The notes below the pieces were generated by a model. The model did not search any database, was not told the origin of the DNA, and saw only the letters and a list, made by a program, of their open reading frames with translations. Below are positions 1,117-29,198 of a stretch of 32,000 nt of DNA, one piece after another. This DNA comes from Candidatus Woesearchaeota archaeon (GTDB taxonomy: Archaea > Nanobdellota > Nanobdellia > Woesearchaeales > JAGWAF01): NCBI GenBank assembly GCA_018302085.1, contig JAGWAF010000003.1, forward strand, positions 7,242 to 39,241, in the 5' to 3' direction. The stretch's first letter is position 1. Every line of letters starts with the position of its first letter. Made by a program: the position numbers and the translations under genes.

Positions 1117-1950
1117 TTAATAACCCACGGGGGGTGTTACATCTTGTTCCGCATAAGTGTTGGTGTCATATTGATCAAAATTATATGTCAGTTCGCCTTC
1201 GTTCGTTTCAATAACAATCTTTAAAGGCAACCCAAAATACTCATCAATATAGAAACGCACCTCATCCCAGGAATCAGGCTGATCAGTCAAACGTGTTGAA
1301 AGTACAATTGCAGTTCTGCCGTCCATCTGTTCAGATCCTACACGCTGGGATTCTACAATTTTTTTCATCCATTGATAAGAGGTTAACCTGTATAAATCTT
1401 TGTACTTTACTTCAAATTTCTGTCCTTCGCGATCGCGGCAGAGGAAAGAATCACGCCTAAAACAGTACCCTACCGCCTCCTTTGTTTTTATGTTTAGATA
1501 TACATCACTGATGCCAGATGCTAAATTCACTGCGTTTTCACCTAGCATAATCCTGATGTTATCACCCATCACCATAAACTTATCAGAACCTTGATTGTAG
1601 GGTGGTTCACGATAAATATAGGAGAAACTTTTTACTTTCAGATCTGCTTTTTGTAAAACTTCTCTTGACTTACTGTCAATTTGGATGGATGACTGTTCGG
1701 CAGGAACTGTTGGGGAAGGTTGTGTTGTTACGGAAGTGACTGGTGTCGATGGAGTGGGTGAAGTTGGTTGTGTTGGAGCAGGTTGTGGTGGCTGCTGGGA
1801 AGCAGGTTGGGTCGGGGCAGAGGCTGTTGGCTCCACTTTTACTTCTTTAACTGACTTATTTTCTTCAATTTTGAAAAGTTTTTCTGGAGCTTTACTACCA
1901 CAAGCTACAATGAACAACATGAGAACAATAATACTAAAGATTTTTTTCAT
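1117..1950 (-). CDS. Secreted lipoprotein with a Pro/Thr/Ser/Gln-rich linker and a LolA-like/DUF4367-like C-terminal domain (function unknown)
   Basis: N-terminus MKKIFSIIVLMLFIVACGS (signal peptide plus lipobox Cys). Low-complexity PTQPASQQPPQPAPTQPTSPTP linker. C-terminal pattern ...MDGRTAIVL...VRFYIDEYFGLPLKIVIE... resembles lipoprotein-carrier-like folds. Confidence 0.65.
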   Translation of the reverse strand: MKKIFSIIVLMLFIVACGSKAPEKLFKIEENKSVKEVKVEPTASAPTQPASQQPPQPAPTQPTSPTPSTPVTSVTTQPSPTVPAEQSSIQIDSKSREVLQKADLKVKSFSYIYREPPYNQGSDKFMVMGDNIRIMLGENAVNLASGISDVYLNIKTKEAVGYCFRRDSFLCRDREGQKFEVKYKDLYRLTSYQWMKKIVESQRVGSEQMDGRTAIVLSTRLTDQPDSWDEVRFYIDEYFGLPLKIVIETNEGELTYNFDQYDTNTYAEQDVTPPVGY

Positions 1951-6204: not shown

Positions 6205-6477
6205 GGACAGGCTAGGCCGGGAGGTTAGCACTCTCCTGTCACCCCCAACGTGCTTCAGCGGGGGTCGAAGCTTGGAAGGCGATTGCCTAAGGTGAGGGTA
6301 GTCTTGCTTTGGACAACGACGATCTGTCCTGCTTGATCGACCTTTGTGAGAACCACGTCAGGGCAGGAATGCAGCAGCGTTCATCACGATGATTGATGTT
6401 TGCAGGGTTGCGGATCCGAGGAAGAAGCGAGGGAACTTCCTTACTGTTATGCACTCCACTTTCGAGCGCGCCTGTCC
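6205..6477 (+). ncRNA. ffs: Signal recognition particle RNA (archaeal 7S RNA)
   Basis: Domain IV motif gtcagggcaggaatgcagcagc (compare GUCAGGUCCGGAAGGAAGCAGC). The 5' Alu-like region is ggccgggaggttagcactctcctgtcaccccc. 5' ggacaggc pairs with 3' gcctgtcc. TATA ttttaaat lies about 24 nt upstream. Ends are approximate. Confidence 0.8.
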
Positions 6478-6890: not shown

Positions 6891-7642
6891 AAAAAATATC
6901 TTTCAAAAACGGGAAAGGATTAACACTGCGGGGGTACATCTTTACTCCGAAAAAATATGACACCGCGGTTGTTTTCCTGCATGGCTTTCCTAGTGATTGC
7001 AGAGGAGGAACTGGAAAAAGAATAGGCCCATCGCTCATGAAGAAAGGGTATTTGGTGTTAACTTTTGATTTTAGCGGCACGAAAACATCTGAAGGAAAAT
7101 TTGAAGATAAGCTGATGAGCAAAGAAGTGAAGGATGTTCACTATGCCATAGATTTTCTTTTTAGAAATTATTGTTTTAAAAAATTAGTTTTGATTGGACA
7201 CTCTACAGGGGCAATTGACGCATCGCTTTATGCGTATAAGGACAAAAGAATTGATAAATTGATTTTATTGGGGGCAGTGAGTGATCTTAAACATTCCGCA
7301 AGGTATGATTTTAACGATGAACAAGTCCGCGATTTTTGGACCAAAGGGTATATTATTTACAAACGTGGAAAGAAATGGGTGAAAAATAAAAAATTGAAAA
7401 AAGCTTTTTACGACGAATTCTTTACGCTTGACATTCCGAAAGCGATGAAGAAGTATAGACGACCTTTGCTGATTATCCATGGAGAAAAAGATGAAGCCAT
7501 TCCTGTTAATGATCCTCAGGCGTTATACGCTCTGGCGCGCCGTCCGAAAAAATTGGTTATTGTTAGAGATGCTGATCATAGTTTTCGCAACCCACGGCAC
7601 TGGAAAAAAGTTGTTGACGCGATGATGAGATTTATGAAATAA
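6887..7642 (+). CDS. Alpha/beta-fold hydrolase
   Basis: VVFLHGF..., nucleophile elbow GHSTGA, late LLIIHGEKDE and DADHSF (Ser-Asp-His triad pattern). ATGA overlap with the upstream ORF. Confidence 0.75.
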   Translation: MKKISFKNGKGLTLRGYIFTPKKYDTAVVFLHGFPSDCRGGTGKRIGPSLMKKGYLVLTFDFSGTKTSEGKFEDKLMSKEVKDVHYAIDFLFRNYCFKKLVLIGHSTGAIDASLYAYKDKRIDKLILLGAVSDLKHSARYDFNDEQVRDFWTKGYIIYKRGKKWVKNKKLKKAFYDEFFTLDIPKAMKKYRRPLLIIHGEKDEAIPVNDPQALYALARRPKKLVIVRDADHSFRNPRHWKKVVDAMMRFMK

Positions 7643-7690
7643 TATTTCTTAAAAAGAAACAATTAAATAAGCCAAAAAAATTCTTATGAT

Positions 7691-8428
7691 ATGTTCTTCT
7701 GGAAAAAAGACACGGCGAAAGAGATTAGAGATGATCTTAAGAAAATAAGAAACAAGGTAGGGCGACTCGAGAGTTTTACGAAACAGATAGAACAAACCGG
7801 TGCCATCATTCAGAGCATCAAATCAAAGATTGACCGCGTAGAACATGAAATTCTTCAAAGAGCAACAGAAGAAAAGGCAAAGCCATGGATTGACGCGCGA
7901 TTTGATCCGCAAATTGATCAATTGGCACAGCAAGAAATTCAAGAATTAAACAAACTCAAACAAAACCTTGGCAGTTACGCTGAAGAAACTCAACAACTCA
8001 AAACTGCACAAGATTTGAATGCATTAATTGATTTGTTAGAACAAGAAGAAACTACAATCCAAACACGGGATGAACAAATCCTAAAACAAATTGAAACGTG
8101 GGAAAGGGAAACGATTAGAGAAAGACTCTCGAGGCCATCGGACGAAGCACCATCATTGCGTACGGTTGATGGCGTTCCCTGGAAAAATATTGTTACAGTA
8201 GCACGCCAGCTCGGGGGTTGGTTTAAAAGAATAAAGGGAGAACATGAAGGGAAGATCCTTTTTCCAGGAGCTGGTAGACCTACTCTCGTATCGGCCGATA
8301 TTGGCGCCACGCGTATTGCAAAACAATTCAGAGAACAGCTTGTTTATTCAATGCCAGGACATAAAATTCCAAATGCGAAAAAACTACGCGATGCACTCAC
8401 GGCTGGCGACATTTATCTTGCCGCATGA
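7691..8428 (+). CDS. Coiled-coil protein with a small C-terminal globular domain, unknown function
   Basis: About 150 aa of heptad-like Q/E/K-rich sequence. The C-terminus is ...VARQLGGWFKRIKGEHEGKILFPGAGRPTLV..., weakly HicA/YcfA-like in pattern. Confidence 0.5.
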   Translation: MFFWKKDTAKEIRDDLKKIRNKVGRLESFTKQIEQTGAIIQSIKSKIDRVEHEILQRATEEKAKPWIDARFDPQIDQLAQQEIQELNKLKQNLGSYAEETQQLKTAQDLNALIDLLEQEETTIQTRDEQILKQIETWERETIRERLSRPSDEAPSLRTVDGVPWKNIVTVARQLGGWFKRIKGEHEGKILFPGAGRPTLVSADIGATRIAKQFREQLVYSMPGHKIPNAKKLRDALTAGDIYLAA

Positions 8429-8732
8429 AAACAATTTTTCCGTAGAAAAGACCGCCTTTTGTGTCCATAAGATGACGCACGACATAAAGTGGATCAATGC
8501 CATTACGAGTTACTAAAAGATAAAATGCACATTCAGTATTTGACGCTCTTTCACTATGCAGGCGGTCGTATTCTCTTTTATCTGATAAAATAATAACATC
8601 ATACTTGGCTTTCTTAAAATACATACGCAGCAGCGCTCTTTCTAATTTACCAATTTCCGGCTGAGTAACTTCTCCACGAAGAATTCTCTCGTCATTATAT
8701 TTGTATGTTTCTTCCCTCTCCACCATACCCAA
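8397..8732 (-). CDS. Hypothetical protein
   Basis: 111-aa ORF in an otherwise empty gap. Its 3' end overlaps the convergent gene 7691-8428 by about 32 nt. No recognisable motif. Confidence 0.35.
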   Translation of the reverse strand: MGMVEREETYKYNDERILRGEVTQPEIGKLERALLRMYFKKAKYDVIILSDKREYDRLHSERASNTECAFYLLVTRNGIDPLYVVRHLMDTKGGLFYGKIVFMRQDKCRQP

Positions 8733-8778
8733 GGTAAAAAGACTCTGTTTTTAAAGGTTCACCATGAAAAATAGTTGA

Positions 8779-9330
8779 TCATTTTGTGAAAATGGACTTT
8801 CTATTCTGATTAAAAGTTTTATTGGTCAATGATACTAAAGAGCCCTCTATAAAGGTTATCGTCAAAACAATTGCAGCTAAATAAAATAAGACATCATTTG
8901 GCTCAAAAAATACTGCGTGGACTGCAAAGACAGAAATCAAAACAAAAGAAGCTTTACCAGAATACATATGATAATTTGTAAAAAGATGATACTTAACATA
9001 CCCGATGCTCATCTTCAGAAAAAATAAGATAATAACGACGATGATTATGGAAAGCATTTTACCAACAAAATCTGGAAACAATATCCAAAATAAAAAAATC
9101 AAAGACAAGTCTAGCAAAGTATCTGCCAAGCTATCAAACCAAGAACCAAAGTCACTCTCTTGCTTCAATTTTCTTGCAAAATAACCGTCTAAACCATCTG
9201 TTAAAGCTGCTAATGACAAAACAATGCCAAAAACAATTTTTAATTTTGAAAATGCCAAAAACCAAAGAACAGGTATGCACACTAAACGAAGAAGGGTAAA
9301 GTAATTAGGAACGTTGTTTTCCCATCTCAT
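8779..9330 (-). CDS. CDP-alcohol phosphatidyltransferase family protein
   Basis: Signature [30 protein letters not shown] (DGx2ARx8Gx3Dx3D). Multi-TM. 4-nt overlap with the leuS stop. Confidence 0.8.
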
Positions 9331-12008
9331 GCTATAATGATACTCGGCTTTCCGGGCAATGCGGCTTTTGCTTTGGGCTCTTCTGTTTTTTCTGCGAGGA
9401 TGATGTGAATAGTAGCTTTATACTCTTTTGCAAAGAAGTCTTTTGCGTCCTGAAGTGTTTGAAGTTCTACATTTTGGTCTAAAATAATGGCAGGCATTTT
9501 CGAGGGATCTTTAATAAATTTCGGAATGAGCTTTGTAATTTCCTCGCCATGCTTTTTCAAATCACCCTGAAAAATTTCCTTCATGATCTCTCCTTGATTG
9601 TATGTTTTTTCAAGTGATTTTTTTAATTTTCCAATAAAAGTGTATTTCCATGTTGGGGCGACAAACAAGGTTATTTCTTTTGGCTCCCTAATTTTTGCCA
9701 AAGTCAAAACATTATTAATATCCGCCAAGGTATTAGAAACGAGCTCGTCTGCAGCCTCCGCTTGCTCATCGATTTTTGACTCATCATATTTTGGCCAATC
9801 ATGAAGGGAAATGAAAGGTTTATGACCTAATCTCTCCCACATTTCTTCTGCGAGATGGGAGGCAAACGGCGAAAGGAGAAGACAGAGTGTTTCCAAACAT
9901 GAACGATGCGTTTTCATATCCACAGGGTTCTCTCTATAACTGTTGAAATCGTTTACAAATTCCATTAATGTGCCAACTGCAAGGCTCAGCTTGAACTCTT
10001 CCATAAAATCTGTTACTTTCTTGATAGTACGATGAAGTTTTCCAAGTATTTTTTTATCTCTGTTTGTAACTTCCACTTTGTGGAATTCGGGTTGCTGTTC
10101 TACAAGATTCCAAACTCTGTTGAGGAATTTGAAACAGCCATGCACTCCTTGATCATTCCACTCCAACTCCTTTTCAGGCAATGCTGTGAAAAGAATGAAA
10201 AGTTTTGCAGTATCAGAACCGTACTTATTGATAATTTCAACAGGGTCAACAACATTGCCAATAGATTTTGACATCTTGGCACCATCTTTAATGACCATAC
10301 CCTGACAAAGGAGACGCTGGAAGGGCTCGTCGAAATCAATCAGTTTTAAATCTCTCAATGCTTTTGTGAAAAATCGTGAATACAACAAGTGAAGAATAGC
10401 GTGCTCAATGCCCCCTATATATTGATCGACAGGAAGCCAGTACCTTACCGCATTTTTGTCGAAGGGGATCTTATTTTCTTTAGGGGAACAATAACGTAGG
10501 AAATACCAGCTTGAATCAATAAAGGTGTCCATCGTATCCGTTTCTCGTCTTGCAGATTTCTTACACTTCGGACATTTTACGGCGTGGAAGGCTTTACTTT
10601 TTTCCAAAGGATTACCTTCGCCCGTAAATTTTACGTCTTTTGGCAAGAGAACTGGCAAGTCTTTTTCAGGAACAGGAAGCATACCACACTGATCACAGTA
10701 AAGTATGGGAATAGGAGTGCCCCAATATCTTTGTCGTGAAATAAGCCAATCACGCAATTTGTAATTTGTCTGCTTGACCCCCTCATTATTTTCAACAAGC
10801 CAATCAATGATCTTTGGGAGTGCCTGTCTATTTGGTAACCCTGAAAATTGCTTTGAATCGAATAAAATCCCATCACCGGTGTATGGTTTTTCTAACTTTT
10901 TCACTTCTTTTTCTTTTCCTGGAGGGGCAAGGACTGCTTTCAGAGGAATTTTATATTTTTTTGCAAAAGCGAAATCACGCTCATCATGCGCATTCGCCAT
11001 CACAATACCCGTACCATAATCAACTAAAGCGAAATTTGCCGTCCAGACAGGGATTTTTTCATTCGTTGCAGGGTTAATGACATAGATTCCGAGAAAAACA
11101 CCGTGCTTTTCTTTATGTTCAGCCGAGCGTTCTATTTCCGTTTCTTTTTTGACGTGTTCAAGAAATTCCTTTACCGTCTTTTCTTGTTTTGAACCCCTCA
11201 CAAGTTCTGCTACTAAGGGGTGTTCTGGAGCAATGACAATAAAAGTTGTACTGAAAATAGTATCAGGCCTTGTGGTGTACGCTGGAAGAATCGTATCCGC
11301 GCCACCTACCTTGAAAAAAATTTCTACACCCTCTGATTTTCCAATCCAATGTTCCTGCATGAGCTTCACTCTTTCTGGCCAGTGCTCAAGCTTTTTCAGA
11401 TCATTGAGAAGTTCTTCAGCATATGCTGTGATTTTCAAATACCACTGCGCAAGTTGTGTCTTTGCCACCTCATTCTTGCAGCGCCAACATTTGCCTTCTT
11501 CTACCTGCTCATTCGCGAGCACAGTTTTACAAGAATTACACCAATTCACCCACGATTCTTTTTTATACGCTAAACCCTTTTTAAGAAATTGAAGGAACAA
11601 CCACTGATTCCATTTGTAATATTCGGAATCGCACGTATTGACTTGACGTTCCCAATCGTAACTCCAACCCATCATCAACTGCTGCTCTTTAATCCCCTTG
11701 ATGTTATTGTACGTCCAGTCTGCAGGATTCACACCCTTCTTGATGGCCGCATTTTCAGCAGGCAAACCAAAAGCGTCATAACCCATGGGGTACAGAACAT
11801 TAAAACCGTGCATACGCTTATATCTCGTATACGCGTCTCCTATAGAATAATTCCTTACGTGACCCATATGGATATAGCCACTGGGGTACGGAAACATTTC
11901 TAAACAATAGAACTTAGGCTTTTTTGAGTTCTCAGAAACTCTAAAGATCTTTGCCTCATTCCAACGCCTTTGCCACTTGTCCTGCACTTGTTTAAAATCG
12001 ATAGGCAT
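9327..12008 (-). CDS. leuS: Leucyl-tRNA synthetase, bacterial-type sequence
   Basis: [51 protein letters not shown]. The N-terminal 250 aa align closely by eye with the E. coli-type LeuRS pattern, not the archaeal AFPYLSGxLHxGH type. Confidence 0.9.
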
Positions 12009-13153: not shown

Positions 13154-13918
13154 CTAGGGTTTAAGCTTATCCCACAACTGATCGAAGACTTGTTCAAAAG
13201 CTTCAGCGAAAACCTCGTCATCTAGTATAAATGCTCTGGGTGCATTGCGAGTGATGTACATAATAAAGAATTTTTTACCCATGACACCCCACTGTGCCTC
13301 GTTTCTCAAATCGGCGTAACGAACTTCCGCATTTTGCCTTTTTCTTTTCTCCCCATGGGCACGATCGGCGAATGGTAGAATTAACTTATACCCTATCTTA
13401 CGTTTAAGCCTAACTTTATGAAATTCATCATAGAATGGAATTAATGGCTGGTACGCCTCTGGCCTTGCACCGTATATTTTTAAAAACTTTCCTTTGTCTA
13501 AAGAATGCAAATCATCCCTCAATTCGTGCCACATAGATTTTACGCCATTCAACCCTTCATAATAACGATATTTGGAAAAAGGCTCTTCGAGAGGCTTTAC
13601 TTTTTTAAGACTCTCAACAAGATCATTAATCTGCTTCCTTTCCTGCTCAAGCAATTTAACTTTTTCTACGAAAAGGTCATTCAGAATTTCAGGAGAAGAA
13701 GCGACGAAGATTCTTATATTGTTTTGCAATCGATAACTTACAAGACCTTTTTTTATGAGAGTATCAAGGATAGGATAGATATTGGAACTCGCGATCTTCG
13801 CCTTTTTACAAATCTCCCCTGTTTTCGCCTCCTTCAACTCAAGCAAAGCCATATAGACACGAGTTTCTGGGACTGTCAGACCAATTTTCTGCAGGATTAA
13901 TTCATACGCTTTATTCAT
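13154..13918 (-). CDS. TrmB-family transcriptional regulator (paralogue 1)
   Basis: N-terminal wHTH LTVPETRVYMALLELKEAKTGEICKKAKIASSNIYPILDTLIKKGLVSY. About 250 aa, with the coiled linker typical of the TrmB family. Confidence 0.75.
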   Translation of the reverse strand: MNKAYELILQKIGLTVPETRVYMALLELKEAKTGEICKKAKIASSNIYPILDTLIKKGLVSYRLQNNIRIFVASSPEILNDLFVEKVKLLEQERKQINDLVESLKKVKPLEEPFSKYRYYEGLNGVKSMWHELRDDLHSLDKGKFLKIYGARPEAYQPLIPFYDEFHKVRLKRKIGYKLILPFADRAHGEKRKRQNAEVRYADLRNEAQWGVMGKKFFIMYITRNAPRAFILDDEVFAEAFEQVFDQLWDKLKP

Positions 13919-13955
13919 ACTCCTATACTAGATAGTAGGAGATATTTAAATGTTA
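13904..13955 (-). promoter_or_regulatory. Leaderless promoter plus palindromic candidate operator of TrmB paralogue 1 (copy 1 of a direct repeat)
   Basis: TATA atatttaaat (13942-13951) lies about 28 nt from the ATG at 13918. Palindrome CTCCTA-N10-TAGGAG (13920-13941) sits between the TATA and the start. Near-identical sequence at 14897-14945. Confidence 0.6.
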
Positions 13956-13975
13956 TCCATTTTTATCTAAAGTCG

Positions 13976-14686
13976 TTATTGTTTTGCCGTTTTCCATAAC
14001 AATTCAAAATGTTTTTTAAAACTGTCTGCTAATTGTTTTGATTTTATTCTTATCGCAATCATTTCCGGTTCCCAAATCAAATTTAATAGTATATCATTGT
14101 AACACAAATTAATTGTGACACTCTTAAATTCTTTGGGCAGGTATTTTATTTGATAAAATTTAGATGGAGGTGGAATAGTTTTTTCAGTGAAAATAACCCT
14201 ATGCTTAATTTGATGTTTTGTTTGCTCCCTGAGATAATACTCGGCAAATTCAGGTAAAAACTTGCGTAGCTGTCCTGAGATGCTATATCCCAACACTTCC
14301 TCTTTTTTAACAAGGATATCTTTGAGCACAGACTTCATTCCTTGTTTTCCTTTAAAAACCTCTACAGTTACATTTTCAGGAATTTTCGGTCTAATCTCTT
14401 TTAACTCAGGAATCATCTTGGTTACAACTTCTTCCTGCTCTTTTAGGTAATTCAAAAGACTTTCAGGATCTGTAGCGCGAAAGAACTGCTTATTCTCTTT
14501 TAATAGAAATGCAACAATGCCCATCGCTTTTAGCTTCTCTAAACTATCGTAAATGTTTGTTCTATGCAATCCTGAATTTTTGCTTATCTCCGCAACAGTA
14601 GCTTCTCCCAATTTCAACAATGTTAAATATATCTTTGCTTCGCTGTCAGAGAGTCCAATACCCCTAAGCTTTTCAATATCAACCAT
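13976..14686 (-). CDS. TrmB-family transcriptional regulator (paralogue 2)
   Basis: N-terminal wHTH LSDSEAKIYLTLLKLGEATVAEISKNSGLHRTNIYDSLEKLKAMGIVAF. Own TATA (rc acttaaatag, 14707-14716) about 26 nt upstream of the ATG. Confidence 0.75.
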   Translation of the reverse strand: MVDIEKLRGIGLSDSEAKIYLTLLKLGEATVAEISKNSGLHRTNIYDSLEKLKAMGIVAFLLKENKQFFRATDPESLLNYLKEQEEVVTKMIPELKEIRPKIPENVTVEVFKGKQGMKSVLKDILVKKEEVLGYSISGQLRKFLPEFAEYYLREQTKHQIKHRVIFTEKTIPPPSKFYQIKYLPKEFKSVTINLCYNDILLNLIWEPEMIAIRIKSKQLADSFKKHFELLWKTAKQ

Positions 14687-14896
14687 AAGCGTTATGGCCT
14701 GTTTATCTATTTAAGTATTTCGTCTTTTTTTAGACATGCACCTATAGGCAATCACAGAGGCTTCCTATTTGTCTTAAAATAGACAACTGATTCTTAAAAG
14801 TACTGCACTTTCAAAGAAGATAAGTGATTCATTATGGCGGTGAACAAAATTGATACCATCGGTTTTGAAGATGCCGAGAATTCGTATGAATGATTT

Positions 14897-14945
14897 ATAC
14901 GCTTTACTACTCCTATACTAGATAGTAGGAGATATTTAAATGTTA
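14897..14945 (+). promoter_or_regulatory. Copy 2 of the TrmB1 promoter/operator repeat, positioned to drive the 14978-16722 operon
   Basis: Identical to copy 1 over 'atacgcttta' and the final 35 nt 'tcctatactagatagtaggagatatttaaatgtta'. The short segment between them differs (ttcatac in copy 1, ctac in copy 2), which removes the ATG. TATA at 14932-14941 lies about 35-45 nt upstream of the ATGs at 14978/14987. GGTGA at 14973-14977. Confidence 0.5.
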
Positions 14946-14977
14946 CCTGCCGAATATAGAATAAGCATGAAAGGTGA

Positions 14978-15583
14978 ATGATCTTTATGACTTTAGAACT
15001 CCAACATACAAAAATGCCATACAGTATCGACGTACCAAATGTAGGTACTATTCTTTATAGTGCTGCTTCTATTGATTATCTTTCTCATCCTGAAGCTGTA
15101 GCTTATGCTCGAAAGCAAGGTGGAAATTTAGCTAGTCTTGCACAGTTAGGTTTTTTCAAAGCTGCTAGATTTCAACCAACTTTTATCCTTATCGATAGGG
15201 CGCGTGATTGGCCTCAACCTGGTGCTGATTGGCGTCATTCTGGTACATTGGTCTCATATGGTGATGGCGTAATGCGTCCTTGGGAGCCTGATCAAGATAC
15301 TCTTGAAAGGATTTCACAAGCAGGTTATGAAGCGAGTAGTAAAGGAGATGAGCTTATTTATGATTTACGAAGTGAAACAAAAGATCCTGTTGTTCTTGCA
15401 ATAAGAAAAGCATGGATTGAAGGGATAAAAAGACAAGCACTATTACCTACACAAAATTGGAACGAATTAAGCCTGCTTCCGGCGGAAAGTTCTGCTTTTG
15501 AAACTTGTGATATCACACAAGCATTAATGCAACAAGGAGCACATTATCTTGCTGACGATCTCAGAAGTGAAAGAAAGGGATAG
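14978..15583 (+). CDS. Unrecognised accessory-island ORF with a C-type-lectin/FGE-like helix signature; possibly the body of a variable protein, split from its C-terminus by a -1 frame change
   Basis: 201-aa ORF. YLSHPEAVAYARKQGGNLASLAQLGFFKAAR resembles the sW.eA.aY..W.G.rLPTeaEwe.AAR / W.EA...C...GG.LASI motif of CLec/FGE folds. The alternative start at ATG 14987 has better SD spacing. Ends in AAAGGGA-TAG. Confidence 0.5.
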   Translation: MIFMTLELQHTKMPYSIDVPNVGTILYSAASIDYLSHPEAVAYARKQGGNLASLAQLGFFKAARFQPTFILIDRARDWPQPGADWRHSGTLVSYGDGVMRPWEPDQDTLERISQAGYEASSKGDELIYDLRSETKDPVVLAIRKAWIEGIKRQALLPTQNWNELSLLPAESSAFETCDITQALMQQGAHYLADDLRSERKG

Positions 15584-15606
15584 TTTATTGTTTAATCGCA
15601 AAGGAC

Positions 15607-15789
15607 TTGACAGAAGCTGGTCTAGAGGCTGGAGACGGAAAAGTACTCATCCGTCCTTCCCGTCTTGGCTACGACCGCACCTACTCCGACTACGTTGGTG
15701 TTGTTGCTTGCGGCCAGTTCGGTCGCAAGGGGTGGGCTCGCGCGGTAGCCGAGGCGCCGAAAAGTCCCAGTGAAAAACAAGGTGAGTGA
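15607..15789 (+). CDS. Tyr/Asp/Ser/Gly-rich variable-repeat-like C-terminal module (frame -1 relative to 14978-15583; frame open from 15568)
   Basis: Only a TTG start. 19 of 20 codons in 15667-15726 end in C or T (9 consecutive NNC, then 5 NNT). Locally very GC-rich. Scaffold VLIRPS...GWARAV. GTGA start/stop overlap with the next ORF. Confidence 0.45.
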   Translation: MTEAGLEAGDGKVLIRPSRLGYDRTYSDYVGVVACGQFGRKGWARAVAEAPKSPSEKQGE

Positions 15790-16190
15790 AAATGGTTAAT
15801 GTACAAAGACATACAAGATATGGTATTACCATGGTCGATGCACACTCGCTTGCTCATCGGTGCAAATATGGTGATTTGTGGAGTGCTGATGAAGCCATTG
15901 AGTGGATTGCACAGACACCCTGCACAGGAAGGGTTGAAGAATGCGACCCGACGTATAGCCCGATTATCACATGCACGACAGGTATTTATTATGCTGAATC
16001 TGGAGAGATCATTGTTTCATACGTTGACGATAAAGATGGTGCCCTCGCATCACTCGTTGGAAGTACCGTAATTAAAGATCGTGACGATATCCGCGCAGCT
16101 TTGAGAGAAGCTCGAGAAAGAACAACCAGCCCGCCCTGGAGAAGCATATGGAACAGTTCTGACACCAGAAACACTATTTCCGACATATGA
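15786..16190 (+). CDS. Hypothetical protein (accessory island)
   Basis: 134-aa ORF (GTG 15786 or ATG 15792), translationally coupled to the upstream ORF. No recognised domain. The last 25 aa or so look non-protein-like, while the +1 frame is open and protein-like from 16105. Confidence 0.45.
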   Translation: MKMVNVQRHTRYGITMVDAHSLAHRCKYGDLWSADEAIEWIAQTPCTGRVEECDPTYSPIITCTTGIYYAESGEIIVSYVDDKDGALASLVGSTVIKDRDDIRAALREARERTTSPPWRSIWNSSDTRNTISDI

Positions 16191-16197
16191 TATTAAA

Positions 16198-16722
16198 TTG
16201 TTAAATGAAGGGTTAAAGTCGTTAAAGTCGTCGTTGTCCGATGAAAATAAAGCAAGGGTACATGCTGTTGCGATTTATATTAAATATGATATAGTGGACC
16301 AAGACACCGACTCAATAGGGTATATCATTGACGCGAGGATTTCTGGCCCTTTTGGTGATGTGTTACTCGGAACAGGCAGTGCGGGCACGCGCAACACGCA
16401 AGACGCTACGAAAGGTTTGGAAGAAAAGGTTCACACCTCTCACTTCGTGCTTGAAGGGGCATGGCGAACATTAGTACTAGGAGGGGTGGCAAAATTAGAC
16501 TCAATGCTACCAGAAACATTGACGAAAGAGCTAGAGGACGCACGCAGAGAAGCAAGAGACGCACTTTCAGATTACATTTCAGTTGAAAAAGATGAAGAAA
16601 GAAGGGGTTTAGCAGAAGAGCTTAGAGAATCGTTGGGATCTAATAAAATGAACGGGCAGGGAGGATTAGGAGAAGCGATTAAACTTTTCACTTTGTTTGG
16701 AAGAACACTTGAAAAAGAATGA
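16198..16722 (+). CDS. Hypothetical protein (accessory island); may be the continuation of 15786-16190 after a +1 frame change
   Basis: Only a TTG start. The same frame is open back to 16105 (EKLEKEQPARPGEAYGTVLTPETLFPTYDIKLLNEG...). Helical, acidic C-terminal half. No recognised domain. Confidence 0.45.
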   Translation: MLNEGLKSLKSSLSDENKARVHAVAIYIKYDIVDQDTDSIGYIIDARISGPFGDVLLGTGSAGTRNTQDATKGLEEKVHTSHFVLEGAWRTLVLGGVAKLDSMLPETLTKELEDARREARDALSDYISVEKDEERRGLAEELRESLGSNKMNGQGGLGEAIKLFTLFGRTLEKE

Positions 16723-16737
16723 ATCACGATAGAACTG

Positions 16738-16919
16738 TAGAGAACTTTGCAAAATGTCAAAAAATGGGGTGTTTTAGGCAAAGTTCTCTAGAGAAGTTTG
16801 AGTATTTCTTATTATAGTGAAGGCACCAAATATTCGAACATGAATAGTGCATCTTCACTATTACGAAAAGCATTGTAATGTTCGATAATTTAATGCTTTG
16901 AGTATATTTCAAACTTCTC
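16738..16919. repeat. Nested hairpin element: a 13-bp perfect hairpin followed by a roughly 130-nt stem enclosing two hairpins with complementary loops
   Basis: H1: 16738-16750 / 16778-16790 (tagagaactttgc/gcaaagttctcta). P1: 16791-16801 / 16909-16919 (same arms as at 2023-2059). P2: 16815-16826 / 16847-16860. P3: 16867-16874 / 16892-16899. Loop-loop complement tcgaacat (16834-16841) / atgttcga (16878-16885). Confidence 0.7.
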
Positions 16920-16954
16920 TGTAAAAGAACTTGAAGAAAGATTACCAGAAATAA

Positions 16955-17131
16955 CCAGATAGAACACCGGACGGAATTACAGCGTGTGTCCGTACTGCGG
17001 ATATTGCGGATTTGGACTACATCTACGACAGCCACTACCCCCACTACCCTTTACTCAATACCGGCGACATCAGCTACGACTATGGCTGGGCTCGCGGAGT
17101 CATTGAGACGTCGAAGGCATCAGAGAAATAA
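16955..17131 (+). pseudogene. Start-less paralogue of the 15607-15789 module (second variable-repeat-like tract)
   Basis: Frame open from 16955 to the TAA at 17129-17131 with no ATG/GTG: PDRTPDGITACVRTADIADLDYIYDSHYPHYPLLNTGDISYDYGWARGVIETSKASEK. 20 of 24 codons in 17015-17086 end in C. The C-terminus GWARGVxExxKxSEK parallels GWARAVAEAPKSPSEK. Confidence 0.45.
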
Positions 17132-17162
17132 AAAATTAAATCTTCTTAAATTGCCCAGCGAT
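17119..17162. repeat. Displaced copy of the rpoN 3' end plus terminator (direct repeat copy 1, att-like)
   Basis: 44 nt, 41 identical to 18879-18922. On the minus strand it still encodes IAGQFKKI*. The two differences inside the coding part are synonymous third-position changes. Confidence 0.8.
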
Positions 17163-17185
17163 TCAGTACCAACTCTTTATACTGT

Positions 17186-17217
17186 CAATAGAAACTTCTT
17201 TCTATTGGCAATAGAAA
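17186..17217. promoter_or_regulatory. Triple CAATAGAAA motif (palindrome plus one direct copy) upstream of the transglutaminase-like gene
   Basis: caatagaaa (17186-17194), cttc spacer, tttctattg (17199-17207), caatagaaa (17209-17217). About 80-110 nt upstream of the TATA tttataaa (17298-17305). Confidence 0.3.
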
Positions 17218-17329
17218 CATTTAGATATTGGTGAATTCTCCTCCTCTTATGATAACAAAGGGAACGCATAGAATCATTCTTGAACAGAGTGGCACAGTTT
17301 TATAAATGAAGAACAATAAAAGATATTGT

Positions 17330-18856
17330 ATGAATCTTACCAGAAGAGATGCCCTTAAATATGCAGGACTTTTAGCCCTATCTGGATTAGGAGTTCTTCA
17401 GGGTTGCGGCTCAAAACCATCTTCAAATCCTTCTGGATTGCATGAACTCATTGAACATTATAATCATGACGAAGCAAAAAAATCTGCGGCACTATTTCTC
17501 CTCGAAGAGGCAAAGAAAAGAGTTTCACAAGTTTTTCCGGAAGGGGCGCCAGAAGCCGAACAGGATAAACTAAAACCACTTGAAACAATAGATGCAAATC
17601 ATCCTCAGATTGTAGAGGCTTTGGTCCGAAATATAGACTTCGCATTTCAAGCAAGAATGCAATTCCCTTGGTGCTCTGAATTATCGATGGAAGATTTTAT
17701 GCGTTATGTGTTACCTTATAGACAGGGAACCATGGATCTTATACAGTTTCCTACAGCACATGTTCATTGGAGGGAAGCCTTTCTTACTGAATCAGGATGG
17801 AAAAAACTGCAGATGGTGTATGGAATCTCTACACCTTGGGAAGAGGTGAACCAAACAGTACAGACGTTAGTTGAAAGATATAACCATGCTCCAAATTCCC
17901 AAGAAAAACACCGAGTCAAACTGGATCTGGTAAGTTATGTAAACACTACCCTCTGGGTCGAAAAGGAGCTGATAGCTTACAACCCAAGCGGCGCGCAAGA
18001 AAAAACATTGGAAGCTATTCTGAAAGATGGTGGTGGAAGATGCTCTGATTTAACCCATTTATCCTTGATGCATTTACGAGCATTAGGACTACCAGTAACT
18101 ACATTTCGTATACCCGCCTGGGGAAGAGGAGACGACAATCATCAATTATTGATGATGATAGGAGAAACAAGCGAACAAAATGTAGTCTTTGATGGTATGA
18201 GGTCGAAGCCCTCACAAGACCAAGCCTATCCTTGGAAACCTGGAGGCGGAATCCCTAAAATGTACACAGAAGAATTCGGCGTATGGGATAATGCCTCCGC
18301 CTCGGTTGTAGGCCGCATAACAGAGCACCCATGGTTCATCGATTTTTATCTCGGCACAAGATCGTGCAGGGATGTAACCGCACTCTTTACCGATACTGTT
18401 ACCATAACAATACCTGAACTTGAACCCCATAAAATTACTTACCTAGGAGTCCTCAACAATTTTTGTTCAGAAGGTATTGCGTACATAGCTGTAGAAAAAA
18501 CAGACGAAAATGGAACTGCCACTTTTCATAATGTTGGTTGTAAAGGAAATATTTTATATTTTACTGAGACACACGCAGTTCTTGCAAGAGATGATTGTTC
18601 AATTGAGATTTTTCCAAACCGAGATGAACAAATGCCTTACAGCATTAAAGGATTAAAACCTGAGAGAACATATGCGCTATGTCAGTGGGGCACAGGAAGT
18701 TTTCAGGAGGTACAAAGAATAACGGGGGATGATCAGATTGAAATTAAATTAAATGTGAATAGTGTCTATGCCATTAAAGACCTCACAGAAAAAGGTTGGC
18801 AAAAATGGAGACGTCCCTTTATAACACGAAGAGATGGTGCTTTAGAAGAACACTAA
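17330..18856 (+). CDS. Tat-signal lipoprotein with a transglutaminase-like cysteine-protease core
   Basis: MNLTRRDALKYAGLLALSGLGVLQGCGS (twin-arginine motif plus lipobox). Core GGGRCSDLTHLSLMHLRALGLPV...NHQLLMM...VFDG (Cys-His-Asp pattern). Start placed at ATG 17330, 24 nt after the TATA, because the track start 17306 abuts the TATA. Confidence 0.65.
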   Translation: MNLTRRDALKYAGLLALSGLGVLQGCGSKPSSNPSGLHELIEHYNHDEAKKSAALFLLEEAKKRVSQVFPEGAPEAEQDKLKPLETIDANHPQIVEALVRNIDFAFQARMQFPWCSELSMEDFMRYVLPYRQGTMDLIQFPTAHVHWREAFLTESGWKKLQMVYGISTPWEEVNQTVQTLVERYNHAPNSQEKHRVKLDLVSYVNTTLWVEKELIAYNPSGAQEKTLEAILKDGGGRCSDLTHLSLMHLRALGLPVTTFRIPAWGRGDDNHQLLMMIGETSEQNVVFDGMRSKPSQDQAYPWKPGGGIPKMYTEEFGVWDNASASVVGRITEHPWFIDFYLGTRSCRDVTALFTDTVTITIPELEPHKITYLGVLNNFCSEGIAYIAVEKTDENGTATFHNVGCKGNILYFTETHAVLARDDCSIEIFPNRDEQMPYSIKGLKPERTYALCQWGTGSFQEVQRITGDDQIEIKLNVNSVYAIKDLTEKGWQKWRRPFITRRDGALEEH

Positions 18857-18878: not shown

Positions 18879-18922
18879 ATCAAAGAAATAAAAAATTAAA
18901 TCTTCTTAAACTGGCCAGCGAT
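18879..18922. repeat. Direct repeat copy 2: the functional rpoN 3' end plus terminator
   Basis: Covers the last 8 codons and stop of rpoN (18896-18922) and the downstream T-rich run on the minus strand. Confidence 0.8.
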
Positions 18923-19093
18923 GTCTACCAGATCAACTTGACCCAAGAACATTTGACGACAGCAGTAGCGCTCCAAGCCTAAATCATCCATGACTTTCTT
19001 GCGATCCTCACCCTTGGCCACACGTTCCTTGTATTCTTCCCAGAGATGAGCAATGGGTTTTCCGCAGCTAAAACATCTTACTGGAATTATCAT
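18896..19093 (-). CDS. rpoN: DNA-directed RNA polymerase subunit N (Rpb10 homologue)
   Basis: [14 protein letters not shown]...YCCRQM zinc-bundle motif. 65 aa. Canonical position after S9. Confidence 0.9.
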
Positions 19094-19102
19094 TTTTGAC
19101 CT

Positions 19103-19501
19103 CTATCGGTAGCTCTTCTGACGTTTTGCCCGAGCTTTTCCGTGACAGTTGGGCTTGTGAGTTTCTTTTTGCCTAACATCTGCAACAAGCAATGTACGAT
19201 CATAATCTAGGAATACTTTTTCTAATTTCTTATCATGTTTTGCCAGGGCTCTTGCAATTGCGAGACGGGTTGCATCAGCTTGTGAAGAGGTGCCTCCACC
19301 AAAAGCGTTGACATCAATATCTACAGTTTTCAACACATCGCCTGCCAAAATAAGAGGTTCTTGCATACGCAAGCGCATCATGTTTTGAGAAATCGTTTCA
19401 ATCTTACGTTTGTTCCAGCGGACAATACCTTTTCCGGGGCGAAGCGTAGCTCGTGCAATTGCGCTCTTTCTCCTTCCCCAAGTGTTAATAGCTTTGCTCA
19501 T
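19103..19501 (-). CDS. rps9: 30S ribosomal protein S9 (uS9)
   Basis: GRRKSAIARATLRPGKG...GGGTSSQADATRLAIARAL...KRQKSYR. Confidence 0.9.
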   Translation of the reverse strand: MSKAINTWGRRKSAIARATLRPGKGIVRWNKRKIETISQNMMRLRMQEPLILAGDVLKTVDIDVNAFGGGTSSQADATRLAIARALAKHDKKLEKVFLDYDRTLLVADVRQKETHKPNCHGKARAKRQKSYR

Positions 19502-19917
19502 CGTCCTAAGTATTTACAAATTTGTTCAATAGTTACGTAGGGATACCCCATCAATTTGCTGATGTGAGCACCTTCTACTGTTTCGATGTTCTTTCCTTTA
19601 AAAGCTTCCGGTACGCCGGAGTAACATAATATTCTTTTGTACGCCAATTTTCCTTTTTCTTGTTTGTAAGGAAGCATACCTCTAACAATTCTTCGCATAA
19701 AACGATCAGGAAGTCTGCTCACGAAAGGACCTTTCCTAGGAATTCCTCTTTGGCGCTTTCTCTCTTCTCGTGCCAAAACACGTGTACGAGTTCCTGAAAT
19801 AACTGCTTTTTCACAGTTGACAATAGAGATGGAATCACCCAAGAGCGCTGCTTTTGCAGCCACACTTGCGACTCTTCCTACAATTGCATATTTTGCATCG
19901 ATAATTCTTTCTGCCAT
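19498..19917 (-). CDS. rpl13: 50S ribosomal protein L13 (uL13)
   Basis: IIDAKYAIVGRVAS..., RIVRGMLPYK. 4-nt overlap with S9. Confidence 0.9.
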   Translation of the reverse strand: MAERIIDAKYAIVGRVASVAAKAALLGDSISIVNCEKAVISGTRTRVLAREERKRQRGIPRKGPFVSRLPDRFMRRIVRGMLPYKQEKGKLAYKRILCYSGVPEAFKGKNIETVEGAHISKLMGYPYVTIEQICKYLGR

Positions 19918-19921
19918 GTTT

Positions 19922-20284
19922 TTATCCCATAAGTCGTACTTTTTGAGCTTTTGGATTTTGTTTTAACAAATCCTGAATGGAAAGGCATTTTCCTTTTGCA
20001 CGTTCAATTTCTGCTTTCGCTTGTTCTGAAAATTGCCATGCTGCCACGGTAATATTATGATTGATACTTCCCGTTCCTAACACTTTCCCTGGAACAACAA
20101 CGACTTCGTTTGCCTTTGTAAATCGATTTAATTTGTTTACATTGATAACTCTTCGCTGCCTTGTGGGCATTTCTAAATCATCCGCAAGTCTCCTCCACAA
20201 ATGCACCTGATGAGCATAGCTCTGCCTCTTTAAATCAGCAATCAATGCTTGCAAATGTTGATTTGTTGGACCTGTTCGTTTCAT
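19922..20284 (-). CDS. rpl18e: 50S ribosomal protein L18e (eL18)
   Basis: MKRTGPTNQHLQALIADLKR...VVVPGKVLGTG. Start moved to ATG 20284, because the track's 20320 start runs into the tRNA-Leu gene. Confidence 0.85.
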   Translation of the reverse strand: MKRTGPTNQHLQALIADLKRQSYAHQVHLWRRLADDLEMPTRQRRVINVNKLNRFTKANEVVVVPGKVLGTGSINHNITVAAWQFSEQAKAEIERAKGKCLSIQDLLKQNPKAQKVRLMG

Positions 20285-20291
20285 GGTAAGA

Positions 20292-20411
20292 TGCAGGGGA
20301 CGAGATTCGAACTCGCGCACCCACTAAGGGACTAGCCGTTTGGAACGTCATCCGAATACGGACGGCCGTAGCCTCAAGCTAGCGCATTTGACCAGGCTCT
20401 GCCACCCCTGC
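20292..20411 (-). tRNA. tRNA-Leu (anticodon GAG) with an intron of about 33 nt in the anticodon loop
   Basis: Hand fold: acceptor GCAGGGG/CCCCTGC, D-arm GCA-GAGCCTGGTCAAA-TGC, anticodon stem CTAGC/GCTAG with loop TTGAGG, long variable arm, T-arm GCGAG-TTCGAAT-CTCGT, discriminator A. The extra sequence after position 37 is the intron; its exact borders were not determined. Confidence 0.8.
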
Positions 20412-20418
20412 ATTTGGG

Positions 20419-21207
20419 TTATTGAGCGGTCTTCAGCGACTCCTGGAAATCATCGAGTTGTGTTTTCAAATGATCCAGGGCTGTGATAACCATTTCCTTT
20501 GCGGAAAGTTGCCCCCATGGTTCAACCACGAGGATGAAATCTTCATTTGAGTACTCTACTTTTACGACATCTTCGCAAATGCCATCACAGGCATCTACAA
20601 GATTTAAGTCGAAGATGAGTTTTTTGTCAATTTTTCCCTGCTTGTCAAAGATTTGTGGAGGGAAGAGATTTTTGCAATTCTCAAGTTGCTTTGAACCGTT
20701 ATTAACTGTAATTTTTGGATCATACATGTGCCAAGCTAAGCCCGGGCTCCATTTTGCATGTTCTTGACCCTGACCCAGAACTGCAGTTGCGACAAATTCT
20801 AACTCTTGACCTTTGTGAAGTTTTACAATGGGAGTCTGAGGATGCACAGGAACAACTTTGGGATCTGTTGACTCGATATCTTTTGCGTACACTGTGCAAG
20901 GTCCCTTTGCAGATAAAGAAAGTTTTACCTGACATCTTCCACAACCTTCTGCATTGCATTTACATTTTTGGGGAAGATTATACGTTTTCAAATCGGTTTT
21001 GAGGATCAGCAAACCTAGACGATGCGCAACAATTTCATCGTAGAGAATTGAAGAGTTTTTTCTGAACTCAACATCTTCAATAGCCATCGTGGGAACTCGC
21101 TCGATGATCGCTCTGCGAATTGCATTGACAAAGTTAGGATTCCCCCCATTAATGAGGAGCTTAACCCTTCCTGATTTTTTCTCAGATTCGAGTAAGGAAC
21201 ATTCCAT
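20419..21207 (-). CDS. rpoD: DNA-directed RNA polymerase subunit D (Rpb3 homologue)
   Basis: NAIRRAIIERVPTMAIEDVEF..NSSILYDEIVAHRLGLL. Cys cluster CKCNAEGCGRC. Operon position between S11 and L18e. Confidence 0.9.
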   Translation of the reverse strand: MECSLLESEKKSGRVKLLINGGNPNFVNAIRRAIIERVPTMAIEDVEFRKNSSILYDEIVAHRLGLLILKTDLKTYNLPQKCKCNAEGCGRCQVKLSLSAKGPCTVYAKDIESTDPKVVPVHPQTPIVKLHKGQELEFVATAVLGQGQEHAKWSPGLAWHMYDPKITVNNGSKQLENCKNLFPPQIFDKQGKIDKKLIFDLNLVDACDGICEDVVKVEYSNEDFILVVEPWGQLSAKEMVITALDHLKTQLDDFQESLKTAQ

Positions 21208-28796: not shown

Positions 28797-28880
28797 CTTT
28801 CGATAATGATGACAGGGCATATTTAAATCTTTCGATAAAATGCGAAAGATATAAAGTTTGAAAGAAAAGAAGAAAAATAG

Positions 28881-29169
28881 GGAAATGATAAGCCGCCTTT
28901 TGTCAGACTCCGTTAGGACAGTCTGTCTTCGCATTAAACTTAGCGTCACAAAGGACTTGCACGGGCCAGGGCTATCCGTTTCACCGTTTCCAAAAAACAA
29001 GCTCGGCTGGTTAGCTCAGTTTTGTTGCCAAAACCTTCGCAAGCCTCATCGCGAATCTTGGGCGTTCCGTTTCTGAGATGTTGCCATCCCTTACAGGATC
29101 CTTTACAGGTGGCCTTTTCTAGCGTGGGCGGACTTTCCTCAGCATTGAAGCCGGAGCGAAGTCATTTCC
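28881..29169 (-). ncRNA. rnpB: RNase P RNA (archaeal type A)
   Basis: Minus strand carries CR-I GAGGAAAGTCCGCCC and CR-V ACAAAAGGCGGCTTATC, with P4 complementarity (AGTCCGCC/GGCGGCTT). P1 is ggaaatga (rc of 29162-29169) pairing with tcatttcc (rc of 28881-28888). GC-rich and ORF-free. Confidence 0.85.
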
Positions 29170-29198
29170 CCATTTAGGATATAATACATGATCTGACT

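Follow-up and report, generated by a model that had tools for sequence, protein, structure and literature searches.

A start-less tract of C-ending codons in an archaeal contig as the probable fossil of a DGR variable module

The stretch of DNA analysed in this study (32,000 nucleotides, hereafter the window) carries an archaeal RNase P RNA at 28880-29170, an archaeal SRP RNA at 6205-6477 and, according to the Pfam labels, the block rpoN-S9-L13-L18e-rpoD at 18896-21207. These RNA genes, together with the order of the ribosomal-protein and RNA-polymerase genes, identify the window as archaeal. Its overall G+C content is 39%, and the locus described here, which we call tract 2, lies within a G+C-richer island (45-55%) with two TrmB-family regulator genes on one side and the ribosomal block on the other. 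The features of the island to which the text refers are as follows.

15650-15760, plus strand: VR1 (tract 1), the variable region of target gene A (14978-15789), delimited by comparison with a template repeat and between haplotypes.
15786-16722, plus strand: gene B (P0005), 336 aa when intact, delimited by assembly comparison and hhalign.
16735-16920, no strand assigned: two-hairpin palindromic repeat element, the left boundary of tract 2, recognised by motif count, folding and the divergence of contigs L005 and L006.
16894-16962, plus strand: frame-1 piece ending in ...NFSVKELEERLPEITR and a stop, resembling the family motif WSLT.EDLE and lying outside the hhalign match.
16955-16989, plus strand: 5' part of the open frame of tract 2, PDRTPDGITACV, with two competing alignments.
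16990-17131, plus strand: securely homologous part of tract 2, a remnant of a C-terminal variable module including the stop codon, supported by the DNA offset, hhalign and BLASTP.
17015-17086, plus strand: 24 putative former variable codons, 20 of them NNC, recognised by codon bias and by the hypervariable stretch of the family.
17084-17100, plus strand: G+C-rich block GGCTGGGCTCGCGGAGT, which codes for GWARGV and is the DNA most conserved with VR1.
17119-17162, no strand assigned: copy 1 of a 44-nt direct repeat, comprising the end of tract 2 with its final codons and stop, and a pseudo rpoN 3' end (minus strand).
18879-18922, no strand assigned: copy 2 of the 44-nt direct repeat, comprising the real rpoN 3' end and the remnant of a stop reading ...SKK.

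Two side observations concern the DNA to the left of target gene A. A perfect 38-nt direct repeat, which contains a TATA-like box and the palindrome CTCCTA..TAGGAG, occupies 13918-13955 and 14908-14945. Its first copy lies upstream of one TrmB-family gene (13154-13918) and its second copy between the other TrmB gene (13976-14686) and target gene A, and the arrangement suggests that a regulator plus its own operator was duplicated in tandem. Furthermore, the related contig L023 encodes at 7064-9685 an 873-aa protein with an intein (an Intein_splicing domain and a LAGLIDADG homing endonuclease domain), and the position of this protein in L023 and related contigs corresponds to the DNA just past the left end of the window.

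In the window, a private 7-nt deletion at about 15575 splits ORF A (14978-15583) from VR1. All the other assemblies that cover this site (L001, L004, L005, L026 and L030) have seven extra bases and carry a single ORF of 264-272 aa, and the continuous ORF in every one of them rules out that ORF A passes into tract 1 by a programmed -1 frameshift at A-AAG. Gene B, whose start overlaps the stop of the target gene, is affected in the same manner, since a private 80-nt deletion at 16129/16130 splits it into ORFs of 134 and 174 aa. The NCBI annotation treats the fragments left by these deletions as separate proteins (P0016, 198 aa; P0013, 162 aa). Annotators should be cautious here: the frameshifts in this contig are private deletions and not programmed events.

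A search of 1.84 billion representatives placed the 272-aa target protein in a family of about 40 clusters. Its members are mostly 230-285 aa long and share the C-terminal consensus LT..DL...V.[VI]RP.GLGGD......V.A...F...G.ARGVR. None of the members matched Pfam, a sequence-level search of the PDB with the target protein gave no match, and the IMG/VR searches with the family (alignments A2 and A5) returned no relatives; the scan of GTDB genomes returned one MAG contig only, which was already in the protein-search set. An AF2 model built on an alignment of 34 sequences had a pLDDT of 90.7; with a 4-sequence alignment the pLDDT was 30, and enlargement of the family was needed for a usable model. 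The only significant Foldseek match of this model in the PDB was 5ioo_A (E=1.5e-4, probability 1.0, TMt 0.63), a DGR variable protein of Nanoarchaeota that has the C-type lectin fold, and weak C-type lectin matches ranked after it. By AF2 and Foldseek, the family (P0001) paralogous to tract 2 is thus one of C-type-lectin-fold proteins.

A template repeat (TR) of the family was found on the related contig L002, whose target protein is 40% identical. The VR occupies 7451-7544 and the TR 7794-7890, some 230 nt 3' of the target gene. Between the two there are 15 substitutions at TR adenines, 4 substitutions elsewhere and a 3-nt indel near the 5' end. In the 68-nt block 3' of the indel, there were 11 mismatches at adenines and 0 at other bases. 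No reverse-transcriptase gene was found across the 12.4-kb contig of L002. The DNA right after its TR reads ...DGGTLHCASQ followed by a stop, which we take to resemble the C-terminus of agmatine/arginine deiminases. When VR1 of the window was compared with the L002 TR, 22 of the 28 substitutions fell at TR adenines, and the N-terminal domain is the same in the strain variants P0019, P0020 and L030, whose VRs differ. The adenine pattern, the restriction of strain differences to the VR, the family and the fold therefore indicate that tract 1 is a real DGR variable region.

Comparison of assemblies revealed two arrangements downstream of the target gene. Contig L030 (ERZ27254752 k141_359035), from the sample that also yielded L006, shows no difference from the window over 13749-15574 (1.8 kb); over 13749-15782, all 58 differing alignment positions lie within 15575-15778, and the VR of L030 is shorter. 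After the target stop, L030 continues into a spacer resembling that of L002 (77.6% over 263 nt), which in L002 precedes the TR. In the window-type haplotype (L001, L004-L006 and L026), the target stop is directly followed by gene B, which occupies the place of the spacer (and then, in L002, of the TR) in the other haplotype. The TR-associated and the gene-B/tract-2 arrangements are thus polymorphic within one population, and the absence of a TR from the 32 kb of the window haplotype fits the finding that VR1 is identical in all six copies.

Tract 2 consists of a frame (mod 3 = 2) that is open from 16955 to the TAA at 17129-17131 and translates as PDRTPDGITACVRTADIADLDYIYDSHYPHYPLLNTGDISYDYGWARGVIETSKASEK. 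The sequence-only reading from which this study started had described this frame as lacking ATG and GTG, and the frame check bore this out (0 in-frame occurrences of either); the sole in-frame TTG, at 17012, would give an ORF of 39 aa. In the stretch 17015-17086, the third position is C in 20/24 codons, T in 3/24 and A in 1/24, with NNC runs of 11 and 7, a TAC:TAT ratio of 5:1 and a GAC:GAT ratio of 4:0, and all of these counts, previously reported in the same reading, were reproduced on recounting. In the background of 6629 codons from 25 window genes, 16.8% end in C, and the binomial probability of at least 20 such codons in 24 is 1.7e-12. Moreover, the proportion of C-ending codons falls to 2/20 in the 5' flank and 2/14 in the 3' flank and is 7-21% in the neighbouring genes. 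The bias is therefore local, and a general effect of a high-GC donor, which had been named as one of the findings that would overturn the initial interpretation, is excluded for tract 2.

The codon signature of adenine mutagenesis, namely NNC/NNT codons derived from AAC/AAT and confined to a variable stretch, is thus present in tract 2. The NNC run lies in the hypervariable stretch of the family, from GLG to ARGV, which is the stretch under the L002 TR, and it represents the footprint expected of adenine mutagenesis on AAC-type template codons; DGR mutagenesis is its probable origin. Downstream of the run, zero-mismatch occurrences of the G+C-rich block pattern were found in the window at 15730 and 17084 only. 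The block at 17084-17100 may be the G+C-rich 3' element of a former VR. The G+C-rich sequence GGCTGGGCTCGCGG is common to tract 2 and VR1 and is a candidate for the initiation-of-mutagenic-homing (IMH) element of a VR 3' end, yet it also codes for the conserved GWAR. The nearest inverted repeat 3' of tract 2, at 17171-17222, lies past the boundary of the 44-nt duplication.

The paralogy of the two tracts, proposed earlier from their shared C-terminal scaffold, was supported at the DNA and protein levels. A single ungapped offset of 1354 nt aligns tract 2 with tract 1 in codon register. For 16990-17131, the best match on both strands of the whole window was at 15636 (67/142; next best 58), and two sub-blocks independently gave the same offset (23/32, next best 19; 20/25, next best 16). 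In an hhalign comparison of the frameshift-corrected tract 2 with the 34-member family profile, residues 16-67 aligned with approximately residues 219-265 of P0001 (E=0.0015, 46 columns), in the C-terminal variable module. BLASTP against P0001 paired GWARGVIETSKA-SEK with GWARAVAEAPKSPSEK (10/16 identities, E=0.004), with the common pattern GWAR.V.E..K..SEK. The protein-level similarity is short and moderately significant (E about 1e-3 in single comparisons), and the module in tract 2 follows the pattern ...VR....[variable]....GWARGV.E..K.SEK plus stop. Tract 2 is thereby linked to the variable module of a family with a TR/VR pair, and its sequence supports its interpretation as a divergent paralogue of tract 1, the C-terminal variable module of target gene A. 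As tract 2 covers only the equivalent of residues 219-265 of P0001, it cannot form the fold alone. A TAC-rich run of tract 2 also matched 1721-1751 (minus strand), and this match proved to be merely a Pro/Thr/Ser linker.

Upstream of this part, the homology is less certain. The 5' third of tract 2 has two alternative alignments to the family, and the homology of 16955-16989 is plausible from the sequence. The piece in another frame at 16894-16962, which the initial description had pointed out, is present and reads CFEYISNFSVKELEERLPEITR before a stop; judging from its resemblance to the family motif, it may be a further upstream remainder of the tract 2 gene that was split off by a frameshift.

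The identity between the DNA of tract 1 and tract 2 is 63/136 (46%), with mismatches at all base types, and consequently neither tract is the template of the other. Tract 2 does not derive from a TR of the L002 type either, given 45/86 matches with mismatches at all bases. The earlier view that the low identity speaks for paralogues and not for a TR/VR pair therefore stood, and in the window and all fetched loci no cognate TR for either tract came up in an adenine-wildcard scan. The best non-self candidate for tract 2 had 29 non-A mismatches in 111 nt, compared with 0 for the positive control, the L002 VR-TR pair; the suggested alignment of both tracts to any template repeat thus yielded none that fits in these loci, and no TR with adenine-only mismatches to tract 2 was detected there. 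A TR of the tract-2 type was not encountered, and the L002 type is the only TR type known for the family.

On its left side, tract 2 is bounded by the palindromic element. Hairpin 1 is formed by AGAGAACTTTGC...GCAAAGTTCTCT and hairpin 2 by AGAGAAGTTTGA...TCAAACTTCTCT, with perfect 12-nt stems and a folding z-score of -4.9 for 16735-16920; in the window, the loop of hairpin 2 contains an extra palindromic insert of about 88 nt (16816-16903). The motif AGAGAA[CG]TTTG[AC] occurs 12 times in the window, where 1.1 occurrences were expected, and clusters at 2022-2474 and 16739-16920. Copies of the element are found at 2022-2474 of the window, at 3264-3350 of L002 (upstream of an HTH_7 gene) and at 1570-1770 of L005, and the repeat units are intergenic and conserved in a related species. 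The element matched no Rfam family and no known intron or RNA family, and candidate identities for it are a MITE-like or REP-like element or a site for protein binding. The agreement of L005 and L006 with the window ends at 16808, inside the element, beyond which both contigs have other repeat units and different genes, and this marks the element as a rearrangement hotspot. The proposal that a hairpin element had replaced or interrupted this copy was accordingly upheld in part: the element is real, but a unique insertion or simple interruption of a gene is contradicted by its multiple copies and by gene B, which is complete and has the same stop without tract 2, so that the element is better regarded as a rearrangement boundary.

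Gene B, which ends at LEKE and a stop before the element, is an ORFan seen in this population only and has no Pfam match. Within its N-terminal 155 residues, residues 26-155 align weakly with the N-terminal part of the target family in hhalign (E=0.0023), and the alignment ends just before the variable module; on this sequence evidence, gene B is possibly a remote paralogue of the target family without a variable module, and the island may be a decaying array of three paralogues. Gene B was also considered as a reverse transcriptase and rejected, as its YVDD motif lies too far towards the N-terminus (residue ~78) and other reverse-transcriptase features and a Pfam match are lacking.

On its right side, tract 2 runs into the 44-nt direct repeat, the two copies of which are 93% identical and the first of which contains the last 13 nt of tract 2. 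Both copies encode the rpoN 3' end IAGQFKKI plus stop, with synonymous differences only, and their plus-strand stops read ..SEK and ..SKK, respectively. They flank the gene of a 516-aa transglutaminase-like putative lipoprotein (17306-18856), which suggests that this 1.7-kb segment was inserted by recombination with the DNA of a relative. Since both copies consist of the rpoN end and a plus-strand stop, the parent of tract 2 was probably tail-to-tail with rpoN before the 1.7-kb insertion.

The state of tract 2 agreed with the initial impression of a decayed copy. Tract 2 lacks the ~200 N-terminal residues of the family, about 58 codons are open, a stop lies 5' of the frame and a piece lies in another frame; it is therefore not a VR that terminates an intact target ORF. 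Tract 2 is base-for-base identical in six assemblies from different samples (the window, L004, L026, L027, L028 and L029), and no hypervariability was seen between these consensus assemblies. Besides the motif of gene B, no reverse-transcriptase ORF with YxDD was found in the 32-kb window; the related loci yielded only the same gene B motif, in L004 and L005, and Pfam found nothing reverse-transcriptase-like in the ORFs neighbouring tract 2, so that a DGR-type reverse transcriptase was not detected within the window and related loci. The frameshift-corrected tract 2 (70 aa) shared words with none of 5.8 billion protein clusters. A degenerate DNA pattern for GWARGVIET gave 4 matches in JGI metagenome contigs, all of them by chance in unrelated high-GC DNA. 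A broader pattern of this type gave 10 matches in IMG/VR, 8 of which fell in the conserved phage motif GVDPP...GWARAVAEA, presumably of the terminase large subunit, and were irrelevant. Across the databases and assemblies searched, the tract-2 gene had no intact orthologue.

Drawing on the directly observed codon bias, paralogy, family, fold, TR/VR pair of the relative, lack of a TR or reverse transcriptase in the window, invariance between assemblies and two haplotypes, we consider it probable that tract 2 is a non-functional fossil variable module of an archaeal DGR with a C-type-lectin-fold target, a system of a known kind. Tract 2 would preserve the final ~50-70 codons of a diverged third paralogue within the target family. 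In the living gene, error-prone reverse transcription of an AAC-rich TR would have replaced the variable region many times, leaving successive NNC codons, scrambled in their first two bases, between the invariant scaffold ..V/I-R.. upstream and G-W-A-R-G-V downstream. The N-terminal domain of ~200 codons would then have been lost in a rearrangement bounded by the repeated palindromic element, possibly with a frameshift. As to the probable order of the rearrangements, the tract-2 gene would first have stood tail-to-tail against rpoN, and the 1.7-kb segment with the lipoprotein-like gene would later have been inserted with duplication of the 44 nt. The lack of a TR in the 32 kb of the window and the retention of the spacer in the other haplotype imply that VR1 and tract 2 are frozen, and the locus appears to be losing its DGR system.

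The same haplotypes would also be compatible with a DGR switch-off in nature, in which the spacer, and presumably the TR, was replaced by a cassette of gene B, palindromes and tract 2, and VR1 was thereby frozen, but we regard this scenario as unlikely. Within it, and with the same low likelihood for the whole, tract 2 may be the frozen tail of an earlier generation of the target or the recipient of cDNA from a second TR. If tract 2 did still receive cDNA, it would be an 'orphan VR' without an ORF that is maintained as a homing site, and we know of no description of such a site.

It is improbable that tract 2 is a live remote DGR target served by a TR and a reverse transcriptase outside the window and translated from an unconventional start or by way of a frameshift or fusion. 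DGRs are able to act on remote targets, the DNA examined represents 32 kb of the genome, VR1 has the G+C-rich 3' block TGGGCTCGCG in perfectly conserved form, and the 58-codon frame remains open, all of which would suit such a target. Nevertheless, 58 codons stay open by chance with a probability of ~6%, so that the open frame is weak evidence, and tract 2 has neither a start codon nor an N-terminal domain, with a stop 5' of its frame. Furthermore, its identity in six assemblies from different samples, the lack of a TR in the window or any fetched locus and its misfit to the only TR type known for the family all argue against a live target.

A degenerate TR, for example one that became a homing target and lost its adenines, is very unlikely, and this reading is already largely refuted. 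The position of tract 2 would be suitable, as the spacer follows the target gene in L030 and L002, in the latter with the TR after it, and tract 2 likewise lies 3' of VR1. On the other hand, AAC/AAT account for 1/24 of its variable codons compared with 13/20 in the L002 TR, its similarity to VR1 runs past the VR to the stop codon (E..K..SEK plus stop) whereas the L002 TR/VR similarity ends at the VR end, and its mismatches to VR1 are of all base types. Tract 2 thus does not have the properties of a DGR template repeat.

Equally slight are the chances that gene B, or one long gene, has tract 2 as its 3' exon or C-terminus, the pieces being joined by removal of the element, in the manner of an intron or mobile insertion, or by programmed frameshifting. 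The weak alignment of the first 155 residues of gene B with the family up to the variable module, and the fact that the frame-1 piece after the element shares the frame of gene B, could be taken in its favour. Against it, gene B has the same LEKE stop in every assembly, including L005 and L006, which lack tract 2, and the occurrence of this stop in both arrangements indicates that tract 2 is not its C-terminus. In addition, gene B holds its own LT..TL motif, which the piece past the element would duplicate, the element is an intergenic repeat present in many copies, and such a gene would need one more frameshift at about 16955-16962, where there is no slippery site.

Finally, chance or ordinary intergenic DNA, a structured non-coding RNA, or an accident of composition or imprint of a high-GC donor, although tract 2 is a local G+C peak (47% versus 39%), of the kind that is a common signature of RNA genes in AT-rich archaeal genomes, and has no database relatives, is the least credible origin and on the sequence evidence can be taken as refuted, because the C bias is strictly third-positional, restricted to 24 codons and absent from the flanks and neighbouring genes, because Rfam gave no match at the gathering threshold or at E<=1 and the folding z-score was -1.8, which does not indicate a structured RNA, and because tract 2 is homologous to VR1 and the family profile.

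Taken as a fossil variable module, tract 2 is valuable as a marker and, as a pseudogene fragment alone, changes nothing. It led to an archaeal family of C-type-lectin-fold DGR targets of ~40 clusters without a Pfam model and to a population with two haplotypes, one of which has kept the spacer and the other of which has a different cassette. The family and the haplotypes together offer a usable case study of the loss of a DGR locus and the fixation of its variable region. Moreover, the NNC footprint is a recognisable fossil that outlasts the retroelement.

Archaeal DGRs have reportedly been surveyed by Paul et al. in 2015 and again in 2017. The reference DGR variable protein of DPANN/Nanoarchaeota is AvpA, PDB 5IOO (Handa et al. 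2016, BMC Struct Biol 16:13, as cited in PMC8144416). The system described here shares with AvpA-like archaeal targets an archaeal host, a small C-type-lectin-fold protein with its variable module at the very C-terminus (in the family), the NNC footprint (in tract 2) and an adenine-specific TR/VR pair (in the relative L002). It differs in that the target family has no detectable sequence similarity to AvpA or any Pfam family, and in that tract 2 comprises only the last ~50-70 codons, without a start, TR or reverse transcriptase and without variation between assemblies.

Where one TR serves several VRs, these agree almost completely outside the adenine positions. The two VR-like tracts of the window lie 1354 nt apart in the same orientation and share the conserved G+C-rich 3' block, as would be seen in a DGR with several targets, but they are 46% identical with mismatches at every base type, so that tract 2 and VR1 cannot have shared a TR recently. 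Some DGRs do have several VRs and one TR (Wu et al. 2018, PMC5758913). A fraction of DGRs has been scored as 'inactive' from missing VR diversity (Roux et al. 2021, PMC8144416). The window locus resembles these in having no consensus-level VR variation across samples and in missing parts of the retroelement; it differs in that the decay can here be traced structurally, with two haplotypes in one population, and in that the private 7-nt and 80-nt deletions also disrupt intact genes in this contig. Compared with these systems, tract 2 most likely represents an ordinary pseudogene relic, of a type already known, and calls for no new mechanism.
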